In this document: piece after piece, positions 1 to 24,562 of the stretch
Layout of the letters: each line of letters starts with the position of its first letter
Numbering within the stretch: position 1 is the stretch's first letter
IMG/VR virus record: IMGVR_UViG_3300025630_000054
Span: 1 to 24,562 of that record
DNA: 24,562 nt
Direction: 5' to 3' (one strand)
From: a virus
Taxonomy: Duplodnaviria > Caudoviricetes
Position numbers and translations under genes: made by a program
The notes under the pieces: generated by a model
Seen by the model: only the letters and a program-made list of their open reading frames with translations
Databases searched by the model: none
Told to the model about the DNA's origin: nothing

Positions 1-57
1 CCCCCGTCGAAACGCGAAGTGGGGGGGGTGTTTTGCGCTCAGCGCATAGCAAAACGG

Positions 58-85
58 CGGTCGCATAATAGTTATTATGTTAAAT
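58..85 (+). other. dif-like XerC/XerD recombination site
   Basis: CGGTCGCATAA-TAGTTA-TTATGTTAAAT has the 11-6-11 layout. The right arm is identical to the E. coli XerD arm TTATGTTAAAT; the left arm matches the XerC arm GGTGCGCATAA at 8/11. Lies in AT-rich non-coding DNA. Confidence 0.85.
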
Positions 86-104
86 AACTGCTTTTGTGTA
101 ACGT

Positions 105-117
105 TATCAAGCACTTA
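105..117 (+). promoter_or_regulatory. IHF-consensus binding site
   Basis: TATCAAGCACTTA fits WATCAANNNNTTR exactly, about 20 bp from the dif-like site. Short motif, could be chance. Confidence 0.45.
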
Positions 118-148
118 CGTTTCTCCGAAGCTATGCGTTTACGTCAAA

Positions 149-200
149 CCACAACATATTGTGTTTTTACCGAATGGTAAAAAATTGACCATTTGGTAAA
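149..200. promoter_or_regulatory. cluster of palindromic operator-like sites
   Basis: CCACAACATATTGTGT (149-164, NrdR-box-like), TTTTTACC-GAAT-GGTAAAAA (164-183, 8-bp arms) and the related TTGACC-ATTT-GGTAAA (185-200). Confidence 0.4.
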
Positions 201-264
201 AAACGCGTATTCGCGCACGCGCGTCTGAGCGTCGGCGTGCCTGCCGCAGAGGCTAAACATGCCC

Positions 265-504
265 TCACGCTCGTTTTAACCACCGCTGAAGCGGCATAAC
301 GACAAAGCAGCTGGTCACCCCCCTGTAAACCTCGATTGGCTCCTCCAGCGGCTTCCCAGCGCCTCTGAGCAACTTGCACATCTCCCGCACAATAAATCCG
401 TTGCCAACGACCTCCAAGCCTTCGCACCTCGCGCGCTGCATCTTATCGTATGTACCGCCGAAGCGGTCATACCTCCGCACGGTGTCCAGCTCAATCCTCG
501 CCAT
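265..504 (-). CDS. hypothetical phage protein (79 aa)
   Basis: Co-oriented with and overlapping the end of the upstream gene; GGAGG SD upstream of the ATG. Confidence 0.65.
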   Translation of the reverse strand: MARIELDTVRRYDRFGGTYDKMQRARCEGLEVVGNGFIVREMCKLLRGAGKPLEEPIEVYRGVTSCFVVMPLQRWLKRA

Positions 505-766
505 GCCCCGCCTCCAATTCGCCCGCTATCGCAGCGTAACCGCACACGTCCACCCAGTTGTCCGAGTGATCGCTGGCGCGCGATCGCGACACCTTCAGCA
601 GCACCATCATCGCCGCCACGTCCACCTCGGTCACGTCCACGCCGAGATACGCTGACCACATGCCAGCAATCCTCGCGTGACTGTCCTTCGCCGACCCGTA
701 GGTCGCCTGCCTGTCGCCCGTGATAAGCTCACCGGCTGTGCGCAACACGTCTTCCCTCGTCACCAT
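491..766 (-). CDS. DUF6378-like phage protein
   Basis: Motifs GDRQATYG, IAGMWSAYL, MMVLLKVSR and DNWVDVCGYAA are typical of this small phage family. Confidence 0.8.
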   Translation of the reverse strand: MVTREDVLRTAGELITGDRQATYGSAKDSHARIAGMWSAYLGVDVTEVDVAAMMVLLKVSRSRASDHSDNWVDVCGYAAIAGELEAGHGED

Positions 767-1347
767 GGAATATCGTCCTCTATGTTTCCGTTGCCACTTT
801 CGTCCACCACACGCGTTACCTTCGCGTTGGGGAACGTCTCAAACGCCTTCTGCAAAAACGCCTCGCTGAAGTGCTGCTTCAGTATGCACGCGGCATCCTC
901 GAACGAGTAGACCACCCACTCGGGATACCGTTTGCGCAGCTCGGCGCATCCCTGCCGCGCGAAGCACACGATCTGCCCGCCATCCACCTCCACGCACCAC
1001 GCGTGCGGCGACAGCGGCTTATGCCCCGCGCCCTCCGCTTCTGCTTCCATGCGCTTCCACCCCGCCATGAGCTGCGTGGCGATCTTGTTCGTCCTGACGA
1101 CATCACAATCCACGACCGCCTGCTTCAGCGCCTCATACGCCGCCTCAAACTTGCCCGCCAGCTCCGGCGTGACCAGCGACGGCAGCGTGTCACCCCACCG
1201 CTCGGTCATTTCCCTCGCCACCCGATCGAGCGGCTCCAGCTGACCCCAGACTGCCGCCGGTATAGGCTCCGTCCTTTCACCAACCGTGAACTTCCCCTTC
1301 GACGCTATCTGCTTTGCCGTAGGCCGACGCCCTTTCTGCTTAACCAT
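760..1347 (-). CDS. hypothetical phage protein (195 aa, starts MVKQKG)
   Basis: Start moved to ATG 1347 using the AGGGGG SD; acidic-aromatic C-terminus EDDIPW; overlaps the next gene start. Confidence 0.75.
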   Translation of the reverse strand: MVKQKGRRPTAKQIASKGKFTVGERTEPIPAAVWGQLEPLDRVAREMTERWGDTLPSLVTPELAGKFEAAYEALKQAVVDCDVVRTNKIATQLMAGWKRMEAEAEGAGHKPLSPHAWCVEVDGGQIVCFARQGCAELRKRYPEWVVYSFEDAACILKQHFSEAFLQKAFETFPNAKVTRVVDESGNGNIEDDIPW

Positions 1348-1380
1348 GAACATGCCCCCTACGCATCCCCAGCAAAACAA

Positions 1381-1527
1381 TCTCCGCACCTTCAATAAAT
1401 ACGCCCGCACTTCTCTCCGCACCTTGCATATATATATGCAAGTGGTGCGGCGGAAGATTTCTTGCCGTATTTACCGCACCCTCGGCACCACGCCGCACCA
1501 TAAGTGCGGTAAGTGCGGAACGTGCGG
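1381..1527. repeat. iteron-like repeat cluster, putative replication origin
   Basis: Nine CCGCAC/GTGCGG hexamers in both orientations around a perfect 20-bp AT-core palindrome CTTGCATATATATATGCAAG (1423-1442), directly downstream of the primase-helicase gene. Confidence 0.65.
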
Positions 1528-1575
1528 AAACGCCCCCAAATCCCACGCCCCCGACGCCACCCGTCTCGCTGGCCA

Positions 1576-3777
1576 TCATACCCCCGCCTCCTCTCCCGTT
1601 ATCCATTCACCCACCACAACGCACGGCACATCCCTGCCGTCACGCTTGCTTGGCGCAGACGTCTTGCGCAGCACGCCGTTCTCGATCCACTTGGCCACGA
1701 TCGCCTTGGCCTTCGCCTTCTCGTGGCGCTTGTCCAAGTCCAGCCCCAGCACGTCTGCCACCGTGACGCCGACCCACGTCTTGGCCTGCACGTTTGCGCG
1801 GAGCGGCTCGCCCTGCGTTTCCGCGTCGCCCACCGCGCGCTGCACCTTCATCGCGTCGCGCGCCGACACGCCGTCGAAGAGATCCGGCATCGCATACTCC
1901 GTGGCCACGCCGACATATTCCATGTTTGGCAGCTGCACGCCCACCATGCGCCGGTAGACCGCCTTTGCGGCTGGCGGTGCCAAGTTTGCCTTGCCGTCGT
2001 CCACGCGGAATATGCCGAGGCTCTCCGCTTCGCTCACGCCGAGCTTCTGCGCGTCTTCCGCGCTGATCTTGTTTATGACCCGCGCCGCCCTCGCCGCCCC
2101 GATCAGCGACCCCGCGCCCCTGACGCTGTCTATGGTTGCCTCGTCGCCGTTGCCCTTGCGGATGTGATGCACCAGCGCCACGGCGCAGTCTGTCTCGTCG
2201 CAGATGCTACGCACGGCCCCGACGGCTGCATTCATGGCCACGTTGTCGTTCTCGTTGATCTGGTTCGCGCCAACCCACGGGTCGATCATCACCATGCCGA
2301 TGTCGTTCTCCTTGATCTTGGCCGCCATGTAGTCGAGCATCTCGTCGTTTACCTCGATCCCGTCGCGCCCTTGGTTTGCGAACACCATGTTGAGGCTCCT
2401 TCCGGCGTCGAGGAACAAGCGCCCCCGTATTTCCTCGGCGGTGACGCCGTAATGCAGCATCGCCGCCGCGAGGCGTCTCTGCATCTCCTCCAGCGGGTCT
2501 TCTAGGTTGATGATCCACACCTTGCACGGCTCGTGTATGGCCTCGCCCAGCAGCGGCTTGCCCGTTCCGATGCACAGAGCCTCCACGATTTGCAGCGACG
2601 TCTTCCCGACGCCGCCCGCAGAGGCCAGCACGCTGACATGGCCTCGCACGTAATGCTTCCCGTATATCCACCGCCGCGCCGGTATTGTCGCGGGGTCTAT
2701 TGGCTCGTATGCGGTTGGCCACTGGCGCTCGCCTGCGATGCGCTCCTGCTTTACTTCCTCGACCGGCTTCGCCAGCGCCAGCGCCTCGCGCAGCTTCTCC
2801 GCGCCCGCCTCCTGCAGATAGTCGTTGGCATCCTTTACGTTTTCCACGCCCAGCGCGTCGAAGCGCACGACGTGGACGTCGGTGCTGCCGTCTCCGCGCA
2901 GCACGTCTGCGACCGCCTCCACGTCGAGATCAGGGTCTGCGCAGATCGTGACGTCTGATGCACGCGGCGCGTTAAACGTCTTCATGCCTGACTTGCCGAA
3001 CGTGCAGACGATCGTCGCCTCAACGTGGCCCATGATTGCCTGACGCACGCTCAGCGCATCCTCTGGCCCCTCGACCAATATGATCGCGCCGCCCTCGTGC
3101 TGGTCGCCGATCCGCATGGCATTGCCGACCAGTGATCCGCGTGAATACTTGTTGATGTTGTTATGCTCGCGCTTCTTCCCGTCCGGCGTCAGCAGCACCG
3201 CCTGCACGCCGCAGACGTCGCCCTCCGCGTTGGTCGCGGGAAACAGTATCGCTGGCCCGTCGTATAGGCTGGGGCTGAACCGCGCGACGCCCTCTGCGAC
3301 GCCTGCGCGCATCCCACGGTTATTCAGATACAGCAGCGCCGGTCTGACGGCGTCCTTGTTCTCGCGTGATATTGGCACGCTGCGCTCCCACGCGGCCTGC
3401 GCCTTTGCGATTTTCTCGGCGCGCGTTTCCTCGTCGCGTATCAGCAGATCCTTGCTGGCCAGCCTTACGATCAGGCGATCCATCTCGCTCGGCTGAAACG
3501 GCACCGCGTCATCGTTTTCGAGCTGCTTGGGGTTTTCGCTGCCCCGCTTGAAACCGCTGCCAATGGTTGCCTTGATCTCGTGCTCCTGCAGCCCGATTGC
3601 CTTGGCCGCCGTGTGCAAGTCTATGACGCTGCTGTCGATGTTGGCGGCGTCCATGTGCGCGTGCCGACCCAGCGCGTATGCCGCTAGGTTCAGCGCCTCG
3701 TTGCGACGCCCCTTCGGAGCCATGCCGATCTCGGAAACGACGCTTTCCCGTACCTTTGCAAAATAGTTTACGCTCAT
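1576..3777 (-). CDS. TOPRIM primase - SF4 (RepA/AAA_25-type) helicase fusion
   Basis: TOPRIM motifs ILVEGPEDAL, ICADPD, KDANDYL; Walker A ASAGGVGKTS; Walker B MVMIDP; LVHHIRK and VRGAGSL helicase motifs. Confidence 0.9.
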   Translation of the reverse strand: MSVNYFAKVRESVVSEIGMAPKGRRNEALNLAAYALGRHAHMDAANIDSSVIDLHTAAKAIGLQEHEIKATIGSGFKRGSENPKQLENDDAVPFQPSEMDRLIVRLASKDLLIRDEETRAEKIAKAQAAWERSVPISRENKDAVRPALLYLNNRGMRAGVAEGVARFSPSLYDGPAILFPATNAEGDVCGVQAVLLTPDGKKREHNNINKYSRGSLVGNAMRIGDQHEGGAIILVEGPEDALSVRQAIMGHVEATIVCTFGKSGMKTFNAPRASDVTICADPDLDVEAVADVLRGDGSTDVHVVRFDALGVENVKDANDYLQEAGAEKLREALALAKPVEEVKQERIAGERQWPTAYEPIDPATIPARRWIYGKHYVRGHVSVLASAGGVGKTSLQIVEALCIGTGKPLLGEAIHEPCKVWIINLEDPLEEMQRRLAAAMLHYGVTAEEIRGRLFLDAGRSLNMVFANQGRDGIEVNDEMLDYMAAKIKENDIGMVMIDPWVGANQINENDNVAMNAAVGAVRSICDETDCAVALVHHIRKGNGDEATIDSVRGAGSLIGAARAARVINKISAEDAQKLGVSEAESLGIFRVDDGKANLAPPAAKAVYRRMVGVQLPNMEYVGVATEYAMPDLFDGVSARDAMKVQRAVGDAETQGEPLRANVQAKTWVGVTVADVLGLDLDKRHEKAKAKAIVAKWIENGVLRKTSAPSKRDGRDVPCVVVGEWITGEEAGV

Positions 3778-3807
3778 CCCACTTCCCCGTTCAAACTTTT
3801 GTTATAA

Positions 3808-3831
3808 CCACGCCCGCCGAAGCAGGCGTGG
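3808..3831 (-). terminator. UUCG-tetraloop hairpin (weak terminator or mRNA stabiliser)
   Basis: Minus strand CCACGCCTGC-TTCG-GCGGGCGTGG: 10-bp stem with one G-U pair, between the SSB-like and primase genes; poor U tract. Confidence 0.55.
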
Positions 3832-3842
3832 AGCTTGTTATC

Positions 3843-4430
3843 TTAGAAGCCGAAATCGTCTGCGTCTACCACGCTTGAAACGGGTGCCGATGCGGTTGGC
3901 ACCGGCTCCGGCTTAGGCGGCGTGCTGTCTGCGGGTTTCGCAATCCACTTGGATATGGCAAAGCCCAGATCGTATGACGTTCCCTTGCCGACCACGACGG
4001 GCGTGGACGTCGTGACGCTGACGACCGGCACCATGCCCTGCGCGAACTCCGGCGCGCTTTCCGCTTGGTTGTACAGCTTGGCAATGAACTGCCCCGTGCC
4101 GTATGAGTTGTTGCTGAACTGCGCCTTGGTGCCGTCCGACATCCAGCAGTCCACGTCGAAGCCCTGCTTGTACGCTGGCTTGCCCTCCGAGTCCGTCTCG
4201 GTCGGCTTCGGAAGCGGCTGCGATGGCGATGGCCACTCCTGCCAGTCGCGCATCCCGACGGCGATCTTGAGCCACCCGAACTTCACGTTTGCAATGTCGA
4301 TTGCGATACCCTTGGTCATGTCGATGGCTTCGGGGTCGCCGCCCTTGTTTACCGTCCAGCGGTTCTGCGGAAGGTTAACCCGTATATACGCGCCGCTCGC
4401 GTCTGATGTTTCTCCGAAAGATATTGGCAT
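3843..4430 (-). CDS. putative single-stranded DNA-binding protein
   Basis: Aromatic/beta-rich core, Pro-rich linker and acidic-aromatic tail VDADDFGF; lies between exonuclease and primase; AAGGAG SD. Confidence 0.6.
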   Translation of the reverse strand: MPISFGETSDASGAYIRVNLPQNRWTVNKGGDPEAIDMTKGIAIDIANVKFGWLKIAVGMRDWQEWPSPSQPLPKPTETDSEGKPAYKQGFDVDCWMSDGTKAQFSNNSYGTGQFIAKLYNQAESAPEFAQGMVPVVSVTTSTPVVVGKGTSYDLGFAISKWIAKPADSTPPKPEPVPTASAPVSSVVDADDFGF

Positions 4431-6951: not shown

Positions 6952-7043
6952 CACATCCACCCCATGCTGACGGCGCCGATCCAGCCCAGCACCGACGCGG
7001 CAATCGCTGCGGCGATGATGATGTCTTGCGTCCACTTAGTCAT
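6951..7043 (-). CDS. small single-pass membrane peptide (30 aa; absent from the ORF track)
   Basis: MTKWTQDIIIAAAIAASVLGWIGAVSMGWM; ATGA overlap with the Tas-like stop and TGATG overlap with the next start. Confidence 0.6.
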   Translation of the reverse strand: MTKWTQDIIIAAAIAASVLGWIGAVSMGWM

Positions 7044-7744
7044 GCTGCTTTCCATTCTACAAATAAATCACGCACCAGCTTCTTTGTCATGTATCTCAAT
7101 GCACGATTGTGCGCGTGGCCATCGCTATCTACACGCTCGCGCTCAAGCGTTTTGCGCGTGTCATATATCCTGCGATACGGGCCAGCGTTTTCTTCTTTTC
7201 CTTGGCTCTTGAGCAGGCTGTCGCCGATCGTCCAGAATACCGAATGACGTGACGGGCTATATCCATGCGCCAATGCCATCTCCGCATTGCTGCATTTGCG
7301 CTGCCTCTGGCCATCTATCACGGCAAGCCCAGCGCGCTTATATATGCCGTCAAGCTCCTTTTCGTATTCCATAAAGTCGCCTACCTCGCCAACAATGCCC
7401 GCCAAGCCCAGATGGCCAAAGCCTTTCACCTTATCGACAAACGTTGATACTGGCAGCTCCTTTGCCAGCCCCACAAGCCACTTCTCAAACTCGGCACGGC
7501 TTTCTAAGAGCGGCTGCCTTGCCTCAAATAGTGGCTTTGTGGCGGCGTATTCATCCATTGTGCCTTCGCCCCTCTTCAGTTGGGCGAATAGCTTATTGGC
7601 TTCCTTGATGTCGCCGTCACGAAAGCTGCGGCAGATTGCTTTAATCTGCAACACCAGCTTTGCTTCAGCGCGAACCATGTTCTGCCTATTGCGCCAAGTC
7701 AGATATATCTTGGCAATGGTTGGGTCTTCGTAACGTTTATCCAT
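7040..7744 (-). CDS. tasA: IS110/Nop-domain RNA-binding protein without nuclease domain (TasA-like, 234 aa)
   Basis: Likely start ATG 7744 with AAGGAG SD. The N-terminal coiled coil (WRNRQNMVRAEAKLVLQIK) and VKGFGHLGLAGIVGEVGDF...IYKRAGL...YRRIYD...HAHNRALRYMTKKLVRDL match the IS110 C-terminal/Nop fold. No RuvC or HNH domain and no SG catalytic loop. Adjacent to a dual-spacer array. Confidence 0.8.
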   Translation of the reverse strand: MDKRYEDPTIAKIYLTWRNRQNMVRAEAKLVLQIKAICRSFRDGDIKEANKLFAQLKRGEGTMDEYAATKPLFEARQPLLESRAEFEKWLVGLAKELPVSTFVDKVKGFGHLGLAGIVGEVGDFMEYEKELDGIYKRAGLAVIDGQRQRKCSNAEMALAHGYSPSRHSVFWTIGDSLLKSQGKEENAGPYRRIYDTRKTLERERVDSDGHAHNRALRYMTKKLVRDLFVEWKAA

Positions 7745-7766
7745 AATGGATCTCCTTGTTTTATGC

Positions 7767-8197
7767 GAGGCGGAGGCAAAATGACTTTTCTGCGTAGCTT
7801 GAGTGGCCTCTGGTTGTTGGTGCGCCAGTTCTATGGCATCTCTGCGGGTTCTGATCGGCACCAAATAAAGTGGGAGCGCGGGCTTCTTGGCATTTCTGCG
7901 TAGAAAATTTGGCTCCCTGTTGTAAGGCGGGGGTGCATGATCGGTGGCATTTCTGCATGCTTTAGATGACCCCCTGTTGAATGGTTGGGAAGGGTGACGG
8001 CTAATCGGCATTGCTGCATGGTCAGTATGACCCTTCCCATTGGCGCGCTCAGTATTCGGCATAATGCGATGATCGAGTGGCACCAAAATAAGGTGGGGGC
8101 GTGGATTGCATGGCATTGCTGCGAAAACCCAATGACCCCCTGTTGTAAGGCGGGGGCGTCGCATCGTTGGCATTTCTGCGTTGGTTGACCGACCCCC
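7767..8197 (-). ncRNA. TIGR-like stem-loop guide-RNA array, 8 units each with two 9-nt spacers
   Basis: Minus-strand unit: stem-YCR-N9-YG-CAGAAATG(variants)-YCR-N9-CR-stem. All 16 spacers are exactly 9 nt and different. Outer stems differ between units but stay self-complementary. The inner hairpin is mostly GCA-GNRA-TGC. Confidence 0.88.
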
Positions 8198-8206
8198 TGT
8201 TAAACA

Positions 8207-8737
8207 TTATTCTACCAAAGCCTGCTCATACTCAGCTTTGACTTCGCTGATATTCCAAACATCTCTGACGACTTTATCATCAGTGACGCGGGCCTTGATG
8301 GCAGAATAGAAGCTGCGCTGCCCCTCATGGTGCTTGCTGCGGGATGTCTCGTGCATAATCGCCTGCTCAAGATCCTCGCTTGTTGCATCGCCCAAGCAGA
8401 TGCCGGTATTGGGCAATAGCCAACGCTCAAACATATCCTTTGCATATGCGGGTGCCATGTTTTTCAGTGACACGGCTGGCGTTGATGTCTCGCCCTTGCT
8501 CAGCACAGTTTGATGCGCTGCACGCTTAAGTCGCGCGCGGTAGCCTCTGGGCTGCGCAACAACATCCAAATATGCAATGCGCTCCAAGTGGCGGCGTGTA
8601 GCCTCTTCGCGCAAAACATCGTCTTGCTGAAGCATAACCAGATATTTCTCCGATGCTTCCTTCGCGCTAGCAGATCCCTCCCAAGCCTTTTCTACGGCCT
8701 CGGACACAATCGAAATAATATTTTCTTGCTTAGTCAT
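8207..8737 (-). CDS. uncharacterised protein upstream of the array (176 aa), candidate Tas partner
   Basis: TGATG-coupled ATG at 8737; stop lies 9 nt before the first array unit; no family recognised. Confidence 0.75.
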   Translation of the reverse strand: MTKQENIISIVSEAVEKAWEGSASAKEASEKYLVMLQQDDVLREEATRRHLERIAYLDVVAQPRGYRARLKRAAHQTVLSKGETSTPAVSLKNMAPAYAKDMFERWLLPNTGICLGDATSEDLEQAIMHETSRSKHHEGQRSFYSAIKARVTDDKVVRDVWNISEVKAEYEQALVE

Positions 8738-8886
8738 CACTCTTCCTCTTCTTCATTGCGCCAATTGAACTCGTCTTCGTCTTGGCATTCTGGGCAGCGC
8801 ACTATTGTCCACGCGTCGCTGTCCGGCGTGTTGACGAAACGCGGCAACTCGATGAAGCCGGTTCCGTCGCAAGTCGTGCAGATCAT
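8737..8886 (-). CDS. small zinc-finger protein (49 aa)
   Basis: MICTTCDGTG...RCPEC (DnaJ-like CxxCxGxG pattern), acidic tail; ATGA-coupled start. Confidence 0.7.
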   Translation of the reverse strand: MICTTCDGTGFIELPRFVNTPDSDAWTIVRCPECQDEDEFNWRNEEEEE

Positions 8887-10562: not shown

Positions 10563-11014
10563 ACCATCAGCTCAAAGTGCGGAGCGTCGATAAACGGGCG
10601 TCTGCCCTGCCCGCGACGCGTGTCGATGTAGTCGTTCATCGCGTCCTCCATCGTGCCATCCCACTGTGCTATATTTGGCACAGTCCACGCGGCACCCCAC
10701 CTGATTGGCACGTCCACCTCGCGCGCAGCTTCTGCCATTGCGTCAGCGATGTCGTCATATAGGTTAAGCTCCCACGATCCACGCGGGCCAACATAGGCCA
10801 TAAGATCGACGGCCAACCCGTCTATATGTTTCGATTTCATCGTCTGCGACGCGCCGCTTTTCACAAGCTCGCGCTGCTCCTCGATGGTGCGAAGCCCGCA
10901 GATGACGCCGAAGTCAATCTTGGTTCTGTGGATTGCGCTGGTGACGACAGCCGCCATGCGCTCGTCCACGCCTGATAGCTTATCGCGGCTGCGTGCTGAT
11001 AGTTTGAACGTCAT
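10559..11014 (-). CDS. endolysin, M15-family (L-Ala-D-Glu-type) peptidase
   Basis: GLRTIEEQ, SKHIDGLAVDL, WG..W and DAPHFEL zinc-peptidase motifs; ATGA-coupled start at 11014. Confidence 0.85.
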   Translation of the reverse strand: MTFKLSARSRDKLSGVDERMAAVVTSAIHRTKIDFGVICGLRTIEEQRELVKSGASQTMKSKHIDGLAVDLMAYVGPRGSWELNLYDDIADAMAEAAREVDVPIRWGAAWTVPNIAQWDGTMEDAMNDYIDTRRGQGRRPFIDAPHFELMV

Positions 11015-11355
11015 TTCTTCAAGCCTTTCATTGTGCGGATGCCAAAGCTGGCGGCGATGGACGCATACATGCCCCACTGCACCCAGAGCGGCGTTGTTTC
11101 AAGATTGGCGAATCCCTCTGCCATTACGTCCTGCATGGACGGCACAAAATTCATGCACAATATGGCCACGAAAACGATTGTCCACAGCTCATCCTTCCAG
11201 CTGTCTTTGCTGGCCTCGATGGCCGACTGCTCCCAATCCATCTCGCCGGTTGCCTGCTTCAGCTTGATCTCGGCATTCGCCTTCTGGATTGCCGTCTTGC
11301 CGTCGAGGTAGCTTGTGGCCAGCCCGCCTAATGCGCCTACTATCTGGCCAATCAT
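11011..11355 (-). CDS. putative holin
   Basis: Two to three hydrophobic segments, basic C-terminus, directly upstream of the endolysin. Confidence 0.6.
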   Translation of the reverse strand: MIGQIVGALGGLATSYLDGKTAIQKANAEIKLKQATGEMDWEQSAIEASKDSWKDELWTIVFVAILCMNFVPSMQDVMAEGFANLETTPLWVQWGMYASIAASFGIRTMKGLKK

Positions 11356-22282: not shown

Positions 22283-23824
22283 TCATTTGCCACCGCCTCC
22301 ACCGCGCCTAGCGGGCTTTGATGGAGGGGCGATTGTGGCCCTTCCAGTGGTAGGCGCAAAAGAAATCGGTTCATTTCTAAAACTATCATCTCTTTGCGGC
22401 ACAATAATTGGCGCTGGCAAGTCTGGATCCACAAACCCAGCCGCGCCGCCTGCAAACATCGGGTCGCCAACACTTACCGCTGGCCCTAATATACTTTCCA
22501 TTATTGCGTTTACATCACTAGAGCCAGTGTCGGCAGGCGACGGTGGGGTCGCCGGTGCCTCTTCGACTATGTTGTACTTGCTTGCCGTGTCTGCGCCAAA
22601 CATTGTACTTATGTCTCCGGCTTGGTTCCCGCTTTGCTGCAAGTTGCCAGCAGCGTCAAATAACTGATACGATGAAGTTCCATCACCTAAAGGCGTGTAT
22701 CTTATAGTTTTCTTATTTGGGTCTATTGCTGGTGCGGAGGGCGCTGCTTGGCCAATACCAAGCGCCTCCTCTAAAGCGCCGATTGCGGCACCAGTTATGC
22801 CGCCACCCATAATAAAGTTGCCAACATCAGACAGCAGCCCGCCGCCCTCGAATGGGCCGCCAGCCGCATTAGGGCCGCCGCCGTCAATCATATCTATAAA
22901 GCCTGTGTATTCTTGTGGCTCTAAGCCCAATATTGCCTGCTCGCCTGCAGCAAGTGGCCTTCCCTCTATCGGCGTGTAGCCAATTTCATCTATCGCTGCG
23001 CTAATTGCGGGGTCTAATGTGTAGTCGCTGGGAACTGTTGGCGGCAAAAATGCATCAACACCCGCAGCATCAATAATCTCCGGCGTTATGCCAAATCCAG
23101 TTGATTGCCCTGTCGGGTCTTGCGCTGCCTGCGCGGCTTGGTATTCGTAAACTGTTTGGAAAGCCTCATTATAATCAGGGTTTGTGGGATCAGTTGCCAT
23201 TATTTGCTGAGCAATCTGAACCTCTGGCGGCGCGATATTAAATATTTGGTCGTTTGGCTGCACAGCCAAGTTTGGGTTAGCCGCAAAGCTTGTTGTCTCA
23301 TATGTAACATTTTGCGGCCCCGCAGCCGCCTGCGCCTGCGCGATCGCAAGCTCGTTTGCGCGATCTGCTGCGCGGATGTCTGCCATCGTACCCATAGTGC
23401 TGTAATCAACAGCAGGCTGCACACGCGTTCCGGCTTGGCCTGTCACGGGATCAATGAAAAAGCTCTCAATGTATTGCGCCTGCGCTGGGCGCTGCGCGGC
23501 AAGCTCGTCAACGGCCTGCTGGTACAATGGAGCTGCGCTATATCCGCGTACACCGCCAGCAAACTGCGTTGGCTCTGGCATGCCGCCCATAATATCAGCT
23601 TGCGTTGTTGGCGTTCCCAACCCAAACGCAGACGCAACGTCAGCGGTTTGCTGGAAGCCAGCCTGCTGGAACGGCGTAAACGCGGCAACATCCGGCCCGA
23701 AATATGGCACATAGCCAATCTGGCTGATGCCTTCGGCCTTTGCCAAGTTACGGCGCGCTGCTTCTTCAATGTATTCTGGAATCTCGACGCTTGTCGATGT
23801 TGACCCGCCCTTGCCGCCTGACAT
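22283..23824 (-). CDS. putative internal virion protein (513 aa)
   Basis: N-terminus MSGGKGGSTSTSVEIPEYIE is typical of ejection proteins following the GNAT-like gene; acidic Pro/Gly-rich C-half. Confidence 0.6.
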   Translation of the reverse strand: MSGGKGGSTSTSVEIPEYIEEAARRNLAKAEGISQIGYVPYFGPDVAAFTPFQQAGFQQTADVASAFGLGTPTTQADIMGGMPEPTQFAGGVRGYSAAPLYQQAVDELAAQRPAQAQYIESFFIDPVTGQAGTRVQPAVDYSTMGTMADIRAADRANELAIAQAQAAAGPQNVTYETTSFAANPNLAVQPNDQIFNIAPPEVQIAQQIMATDPTNPDYNEAFQTVYEYQAAQAAQDPTGQSTGFGITPEIIDAAGVDAFLPPTVPSDYTLDPAISAAIDEIGYTPIEGRPLAAGEQAILGLEPQEYTGFIDMIDGGGPNAAGGPFEGGGLLSDVGNFIMGGGITGAAIGALEEALGIGQAAPSAPAIDPNKKTIRYTPLGDGTSSYQLFDAAGNLQQSGNQAGDISTMFGADTASKYNIVEEAPATPPSPADTGSSDVNAIMESILGPAVSVGDPMFAGGAAGFVDPDLPAPIIVPQRDDSFRNEPISFAPTTGRATIAPPSKPARRGGGGGK

Positions 23825-24186
23825 TATTCAAACTCCTTCACATATGAGGCGTGCAGTGGCACCCAGCCATGCGCCTTCAGTGGTTTCTTCCAGCCAAACC
23901 GGCCCGTCATGGTCAACGCAGAGCATCCTTGCGCTTTTGCCCATGCTATCACATCTTCATGCATTTCTAAAATCTGATCCAACTCGCCGCCGCCAAGAAA
24001 CACGTTTAAAACTTTCTTTCTCGGATATACCACTATTTCGGTGACTATGCACCCCCTCGGCGTAGGCCAGAGCTGCATCGTTCCCTTGTATATACCCTCG
24101 GCCACGTCGATGAAGTCATGCGTGCCGCCGGAATACTCCAAAGCGGCCTCAATCCATCCACGGCATCTCTCAAGCTCTTTATCCAT
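23824..24186 (-). CDS. GNAT-fold acetyltransferase-like phage protein (120 aa)
   Basis: LNVFLGGGEL...WAKAQGC..LTMTGRFGWKK..GW pattern; start at MDKEL with GAGG SD. Confidence 0.6.
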   Translation of the reverse strand: MDKELERCRGWIEAALEYSGGTHDFIDVAEGIYKGTMQLWPTPRGCIVTEIVVYPRKKVLNVFLGGGELDQILEMHEDVIAWAKAQGCSALTMTGRFGWKKPLKAHGWVPLHASYVKEFE

Positions 24187-24562
24187 GAAGCCTCGCCATA
24201 GATATAGTTGCTGACGGCGTAGCGGGCGCAAATGCAGTTGCGGCCACTGCCTCTAAGTACCCGCTTGTACTGTCGGTAGCCCACATGACCTCTATGTGAT
24301 CTCCTGCGGAAAGTTGCAGTATCGCTGACTTTGTAACGACAAGAGTTGATCCATTTTGGTGCAACGTGTTTTCCATTGCAGATTTGGGAACATCTGTGCC
24401 ATTAATTCTAACCCAAAACCACATCCTAACAGTTGAGGCAGATGTTGAGGCCATTTGCATTGAATATGTCACAGAATATTGCCCAGCCTCGTCAACGACC
24501 AAACGCGAAGCTGGCGTGCCGTTCGTTATTCCTTCAGCCAAATCTTCAGTAAACGTCAGCGC
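24179..24562 (-). CDS. partial tail-associated protein, C1q/BclA-like beta-sandwich C-terminus (5' end outside window)
   Basis: Frame is open to the window edge; AGQYSVTYSMQ...LSAGDHIEVMW pattern. Confidence 0.55.
   Translation of the reverse strand, partial: ALTFTEDLAEGITNGTPASRLVVDEAGQYSVTYSMQMASTSASTVRMWFWVRINGTDVPKSAMENTLHQNGSTLVVTKSAILQLSAGDHIEVMWATDSTSGYLEAVAATAFAPATPSATISMARLHG

Follow-up and report, generated by a model that had tools for sequence, protein, structure and literature searches.

The window analysed here, a 24,562-nt stretch of DNA from a virus of the Caudoviricetes, lies within a complete 41,353-bp virus record (G001). Its minus strand carries a stem-loop TIGR array of eight hairpin units (7771–8192), situated upstream of the gene for the Nop-domain protein TasA (Table 1). 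The 177-aa open reading frame adjoining the other end of the array gave no match in a Pfam scan, and its 3′ end is retained in the close relatives shown. A 377-aa open frame (7040–8173, minus strand), in frame with TasA, spans the whole array and may reflect either chance or read-through; TasA has its own ribosome site (7745–7760), and several longer homologues (249–410 aa) have N-terminal extensions. The gene directly after tasA (downstream of window position 7040) occurs in two unrelated versions among near-identical phages (L001 vs. L003).

Table 1. Genes and guide units at the TIGR-TasA locus, with window coordinates of the two spacers of each unit.
Feature	Coordinates	Strand	Spacer A	Spacer B	Description
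TasA	7040..7744	-			Solo Nop-domain protein of 234 aa, modelled as all-helical; preceded closely by an AGGAG ribosome site
Guide unit 8	7771..7806	-	7795-7803	7773-7781	
Guide unit 7	7823..7858	-	7847-7855	7825-7833	
Guide unit 6	7877..7912	-	7901-7909	7879-7887	
Guide unit 5	7934..7969	-	7958-7966	7936-7944	
Guide unit 4	7995..8030	-	8019-8027	7997-8005	
Guide unit 3	8046..8080	-	8069-8077	8048-8056	9-nt variant loop
Guide unit 2	8100..8135	-	8124-8132	8102-8110	
Guide unit 1	8157..8192	-	8181-8189	8159-8167	
177-aa ORF	8207..8740	-			Upstream; its 3' end adjoins the array

TasA aligns with the Nop domain of TasR (9MTY) at an E value of 2e-11 as a single sequence and of 1.4e-20 as a 30-sequence profile. 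The structural model of TasA (pLDDT 89.2) consists of a coiled coil from residue 8 and a helical C-terminal domain, with TasR and TasH as its best fold matches. No RuvC or HNH domain and no Pfam nuclease is present in its 234 residues. The C-terminus is short, with the last helix ending at residue 233/234, and the long Y/H processing loop is absent. Among the listed rows of the supplementary protein table of PMC12045711, at least 61 begin like this TasA and none holds its exact sequence. The cultured Rhizobium phage RHph_X2_25 also encodes a Tas homologue (MW960032.1:24918–25703), which is 33% identical and bears the annotation hypothetical.

Each array unit runs from box C (YCR) through a 9-nt spacer A, a near-constant loop that opens with box D (YG/CA), a second box C and a 9-nt spacer B to a final box D, and is closed by a short stem. 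The box C/D base pair is kept in 322 (outer) and 327 (inner) of 337 distinct units, with CG/TA/TG covariation, and 325 of the 337 have a perfect stem of at least four pairs (fold z –2.36), variable palindromic stems replacing the edge repeats. Judged from the DNA letters alone, CCTT or CTTT follows five of the eight window stems, CUU at the stem base being a processing mark elsewhere. A scan for promoters and terminators gave no signal above shuffles, and the RNA runs checked for array expression held at most 0.21 of the words, as contigs only. Dual-repeat TIGR arrays have identical edge and loop repeats and a 36-nt period, whereas here the unit spacing is 51–61 nt and the stems differ; CRISPR-Cas, with its direct repeats and single spacers of 25–40 nt, is set apart by the split 9-nt spacers and by the lack of any cas family among the 14 window proteins scanned. 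The system is a stem-loop TIGR-TasA, an already-known type. In a TasA lineage with 59% identity (L304–L306), the arrays are built of highly uniform 57-nt units that share a single stem type, and are intermediate between stem-loop and repeat arrays.

Under the TIGR rule, as given in the available text of PMC12045711, spacer A pairs with one strand and spacer B with the other, and gaps of 1–2 bp are tolerated. The order A followed by the reverse complement of B, rc(B), is our own deduction from the 3′ overhang reported in the same text. The original prediction had joined the eight spacer pairs in this way into 18-bp targets; all eight are A + rc(B) in the right register, and the coordinates of every A and B spacer were confirmed. 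The 18-mers are also, as had been proposed, richer in AT than the phage (GC 62/144, or 43.1%, vs. 56.5% for the window; binomial p = 0.0013).

The carrier is a marine podophage that probably infects pelagic Roseobacter. Its capsid and portal proteins are closest to those of Octadecabacter Antarctic DB virus 2 (62% and 48%), and its endolysin, a tail protein, a holin-like protein and one hypothetical protein find their best cultured matches in pelagic Roseobacter RCA phages; these lysis, tail, capsid and portal matches point to a probable Roseobacter host. No match was found between the G001 reading frames and the integrases of 16 roseophage genomes. An alignment search of GTDB with TasA returned three loci, all unrelated, and the endolysin search gave 0 of 401 alphaproteobacterial GTDB genomes. 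G001 contains two similar copies of a tail-gene block (1–4259 and 36799–41353), so that the block is either truly duplicated or repeated by an overlap in the assembly; window positions 23677–24562 are 85% alike to G001:1560–2445, and 513-aa and 219-aa reading frames with the same starts occur twice.

Two scans for related TasA loci yielded 22 from viruses and 48 from metagenomes, and parsing of their arrays gave 268 distinct A/B pairs; the single called unit of L087, which is not part of an array, was left out. Over all parsed arrays taken together, both spacers prefer T at position 1, purines at positions 4–5 and C at position 7, a preference counted with related guides uncollapsed that may reflect ancestry or pairing preference. 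One 9-mer is spacer B in the MNLWLP guide family and spacer A in the SDLWLP family, as if a single site had been captured both ways (L010, L013, L014 vs. L012, L013, L015, L016).

The window contains no full match to any of its eight guides, in agreement with the first inspection by eye, and the complete 41,353-bp genome contains none either. At gaps of 0–2 nt between the half-sites, the best G001 matches of seven guides have 4–5 mismatches, and the closest self match of guide 3 is its own array unit, with 3. Spacer A of unit 3 together with the variant loop of that unit is 3 mismatches from the guide 3 target. Targeting of self or kin was rejected for the first 115 guides, none of which lay within 2 mismatches as A + rc(B) at gap 0 in 22 kin loci and the window (arrays masked); matches in other geometries on the same sequences looked like chance. 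One later guide, from an 82%-identical relative (L295), matches the holin-like gene of kin phages (window gene 11011–11355, minus strand), where its in-frame reading is WKDELW; there is one mismatch in L021 and there are two in several phages closely related to that of the window, all synonymous. Targeting among TasA-carrying relatives is thus possible; kin matches of this kind are not enriched as a class.

Guides 1, 3, 5, 6 and 7 were searched in IMG/VR as A, 0–8 free bases and rc(B), with gaps of 3–8 serving as the null. For guide 3, 18 of 22 matches were at gap 0. Seventeen of these 18 lie in the LDHLSI codons of T7-like primase-helicases, which we take to encode a Walker B-type motif, and form nine clusters at 90% flank identity; the remaining one lies antisense, close to the start of an 806-aa gene which, by eye, looks like a T7-like RNA polymerase. 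A conserved multi-lineage motif (eight homologous loci, portal gene) was also struck by one of the 30 null patterns, and because the null is heavy-tailed, the guide 3 count in IMG/VR is indecisive when taken alone.

The matched helicases are closest to those of the Roseobacter autographiviruses CRP-403, CRP-118 and CRP-804 (74–80%), with 66–68% to CRP-361, CRP-171, CRP-113, CRP-125, CRP-114 and CRP-227. Across the nine cultured roseobacter autographivirus genomes taken in (CRP-143 left out), guide 3 finds an exact site in CRP-171 (position 8608) and in CRP-113 (8767), and a site with a single differing base in each of the remaining seven, at A1 in two, A9 in one and B4 in four. This last position, at which 4 of the 9 phages differ, falls inside the seed defined for TasR in the available text of PMC12045711. 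Of all possible 18-mers, only 22, at three sites, match every one of the first eight genomes with no more than one mismatch, and guide 3 is one of them. Its sequence is the commonest allele at the motif, with 9 of 78 sites in 80 helicase loci, a count biased by the query itself carrying that allele; no site within 3 mismatches was found in 17 distant helicase loci. The four runs that hold the carrier contained short pieces only of two target helicase genes, mostly less than 90% alike. An integrase is present in 9 of the 10 target phages described in the accessible part of PMC11092137, and for this reason the target phages may be met as prophages. As far as sequence can tell, the guide 3 match is very likely a true target in rival roseobacter T7-like phages.

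The 268 pooled guides were searched against 3.72 Mb (both strands) of autographivirus loci, chosen by TerL or helicase, and cultured genomes. It was guide 3 that led to the choice of the helicase loci, and the TerL query was picked after 2-mismatch TerL and TerS matches had been seen. At gap 0, two guides were exact and seven within one mismatch, vs. 0 and 0–3 at gaps of 1–10, with means of 0 and 0.9 for shuffled pairings; at 2 mismatches there was no excess (21 vs. a shuffle mean of 18.4). With guides collapsed to families and real pairings excluded from the null, the 116 near-CRP loci were matched by five families within one mismatch (mean of the null 0.65, maximum 3.2 in 300), and since the null never exceeded 3.2, the four families without guide 3 still surpass every shuffle. 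The same count was 0 on 53 distant autographivirus loci and 0 on 43 unrelated loci. Eleven other cultured roseophages, five larger genomes and CRP-7 among them covered to base 50,000, yielded one match within one mismatch, not above the null.

The sites of the five families fall within the genes for helicase, the large and the small terminase subunit, a collagen-like tail fibre and integrase. The tail-fibre guide is exact in CRP-125, its target being a low-complexity collagen repeat that is easily matched, and the integrase match came from guides obtained later and is independent, in a single context. A synonymous polymorphism of the TerL target is reflected in two variants of the TerL guide, and one non-synonymous base differs between TerL guides and targets. 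Matches in which all mismatches are synonymous numbered 2, 4, 6, 11 and 15 at 0–4 mismatches, vs. shuffle means of 0.03, 0.23, 1.03, 2.38 and 4.38, and the 11 at 0–3 mismatches exceed the shuffle maximum of 9 in 200. No such excess was seen in the other sets.

Other orders of the half-spacers gave lower counts of all-synonymous matches (0, 2, 3, 3 and 5 for rc(B)+A and 0, 0, 0, 1 and 3 for A+B at 0–4 mismatches); the two rc(B)+A matches within one mismatch compare with a null mean of 0.23 and a maximum of 3. Exact natural matches occurred only for A + rc(B) at gap 0. This ungapped geometry, on which the original prediction was built, is supported both by the exact occurrence of guide 3 in other phages and by the enrichment of related-array guides, which exceeds shuffled pairings at A + rc(B) and gap 0 in one phage clade. 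The AT-richness of the targets had been taken as a hint of non-self or regulatory DNA. The exact natural targets of guide 3 in other phages uphold the former; the latter finds no support, every validated site being positioned within a gene, and we regard the targets as coding DNA of other phages.

We propose, at a probability of roughly 0.7, that guide 3 directs this stem-loop TIGR-TasA to the helicase gene of T7-like phages of Roseobacter, and that the complex of TasA and guide would bind such sites and block transcription or replication of the rival. Silencing of rival phages is the likely role because guide 3 matches the helicase gene of phages that probably share the carrier's host. The array would be transcribed together with tasA and then cut into single hairpin guides, which would load on a TasA dimer that, by analogy with other TasA proteins, clamps an 18-bp site without cutting it. 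Non-cutting DNA clamping is described for other TasA proteins in the accessible part of 10.64898/2026.08.11.744272, and TasA represses transcription in E. coli and acts in vitro too (10.64898/2026.09.09.750476). The carrier would benefit if a T7-like phage that co-infects or is induced had its helicase, terminase or virion genes blocked, and the rival could be either a co-infecting or a resident phage of a host that the two would share. Matches within one mismatch in the target clade exist for only 1 of the 8 window guides and 7 of the 268 pooled guides; the other guides likely aim at unsampled rival phages or are hybrids.

The array is a fast-changing repertoire. Loci with TasA 98–100% identical (n = 43) hold 34 distinct arrays and 131 distinct guides, which vary by point changes and by swapping of halves. 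Unrelated partners accompany the same half-spacer in 8 cases among 221 A spacers and in 4 among 228 B spacers, so that part of the 18-mers may be hybrids without a contiguous target. Substitutions among guides are spread across all positions, and a codon-phase test of them was negative. A first synonymy test, with fewer guides, was negative and gave 28 synonymous and 31 other changes (shuffle 32 and 29), and a second, pooled over 20 guide families, gave a modest P of 0.027; several families vary almost solely synonymously across the A/B junction, and many others show no codon pattern. The swapped halves, the substitutions at all positions and the families lacking a codon pattern are consistent with a rather unlikely alternative, in which spacers once derived from rival phages now drift and reshuffle, leaving many targetless hybrids and guide 3 as a surviving functional or relic unit. 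The strict conservation of boxes, stems and TasA argues against such drift, as do the synonymous families and the identity of guide 3 in five distinct arrays, but it can hold for some guides alongside the targeting of rival phages.

As targets, the eight predicted 18-mers fared differently: guide 3 found its sites, guides 1, 5 and 7 had no gap-0 match in IMG/VR (0 of 6, 0 of 2 and 0 of 29 matches, respectively), and those of guide 6 were scattered. Five of the seven guide 6 matches were at gap 0 (tape measure in three cases, an SNF2 helicase and GroEL), and with three unrelated genes struck they were judged chance. Guides 2, 4 and 8 were tested on the fetched loci only, outside the IMG/VR collection scan, and the target clade offers guides 2, 4, 5, 6 and 7 no site at 2 mismatches or fewer. 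On one strand the guide 1 family (eight variants) translates as T(M/I)RLVD, with seven synonymous changes and three others (P = 0.017), and this synonymous variation suggests a coding target. In frame, guide 8 corresponds to AQARGK(I/M), a motif that CRP-403, CRP-118, CRP-804 and L193 retain in their large internal virion protein; with three synonymous mismatches in the best match, a target in that gene is suggestive only. Spacer A of guide 5 also occurs with unrelated B spacers, spacer B of guide 6 is one base from that of an unrelated guide, and both guides may be hybrids.

That seven of the eight window guides are without a phage target in the searched data would also fit guides aimed mostly at defence or regulatory genes of the host chromosome, with TasA serving mainly in counter-defence and rival phages as a minority of targets, and TasA can silence a chromosomal gene of E. 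coli (10.64898/2026.09.09.750476). We consider this quite improbable: the very high guide turnover would suit moving viral targets over fixed host genes, and guide GC equals phage GC (45.3% for guides vs. 45.5% for autographivirus loci). Still less probable is that guide 3 matches a conserved helicase motif by chance and that the pooled signal stems from loci picked after near matches, a view favoured by the null pattern that struck a multi-lineage motif, the partly post hoc choice of queries, the easily matched collagen repeats and the lack of excess at 2 mismatches, but opposed by the inferred host that the matched clade shares with the carrier, by the mere 22 of 6.9e10 18-mers that fit all eight genomes, by the zero count on distant autographiviruses picked with the same queries, and by the later-obtained guides, which gave one exact and one independent one-mismatch synonymous match.

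The silencing of rival phages by TIGR-TasA may, more tentatively, form part of an adaptive phage-vs-phage weapon, in which the lineage would write guides to conserved genes of its T7-like rivals and track their synonymous escape, possibly with one 9-nt half anchored and the other rewritten from adjacent target DNA. Anchored rewriting, if true, would account for the families of synonymous variants as well as for the halves that unrelated guides have in common, and the 268 guides with their variant families are material for the question of spacer acquisition. Because guide 3 matches the cultured phages CRP-171 and CRP-113 (cultured host FZCC0023), and natural one-mismatch variants exist, the competition role, the mismatch tolerance of TasA and synonymous escape are directly testable.

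According to the available text of Faure et al. 2025 (PMC12045711), the natural targets of TIGR systems could not be determined, and genuine targets were likewise not determinable in the survey of Xu 2026 (10.64898/2026.09.09.750476, September 2026). Among the literature matches listed, from a search that left subscription journals and bioRxiv supplements uncovered, none reported natural targets of TIGR-Tas or a role in phage competition. Passages of a preprint on yeast editing and of one on a language model contribute nothing about targets. The guide 3 match, a correspondence between sequences, is a candidate answer to the natural aim of TIGR guides.

The stem-loop TIGR-TasA systems of Faure et al. 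2025 (PlTasA, MbTasA and BlTasA), as described in the available text of PMC12045711, likewise combine a phage-borne solo Nop-domain protein with hairpin units in which two 9-nt spacers lie between boxes C and D around a constant loop. Unlike these, as far as that text goes, the carrier's system has a candidate natural target identified, and its boxes C and D are YCR and YG/CA, with covariation. TasR and TasH (9MTY, 9W04) have the Nop fold and A + rc(B) tandem targeting in common with it, but RuvC and HNH, the dual-repeat 36-nt array and the long C-terminal processing loop are absent here. Type IV and V-M CRISPR, going by the discussion in the accessible part of PMC12045711, likewise provide non-cutting RNA-guided interference between mobile elements, whereas the present locus has no cas genes, no direct-repeat array and no adaptation gene that we could see. 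The closest functional parallel is VIPR, also a phage-encoded RNA-guided silencer, whose natural targets, in the available parts of 10.64898/2026.04.26.720920 and 10.64898/2026.10.15.759431, are coding DNA of competing phages, satellites and prophages, as the targets here are coding phage DNA. The VIPR protein is unrelated and its GGY/NN guide code skips wobble positions, whereas the Nop dimer, by analogy, would read a contiguous 18 bp on both strands, and synonymous variants of a target would need new guides.
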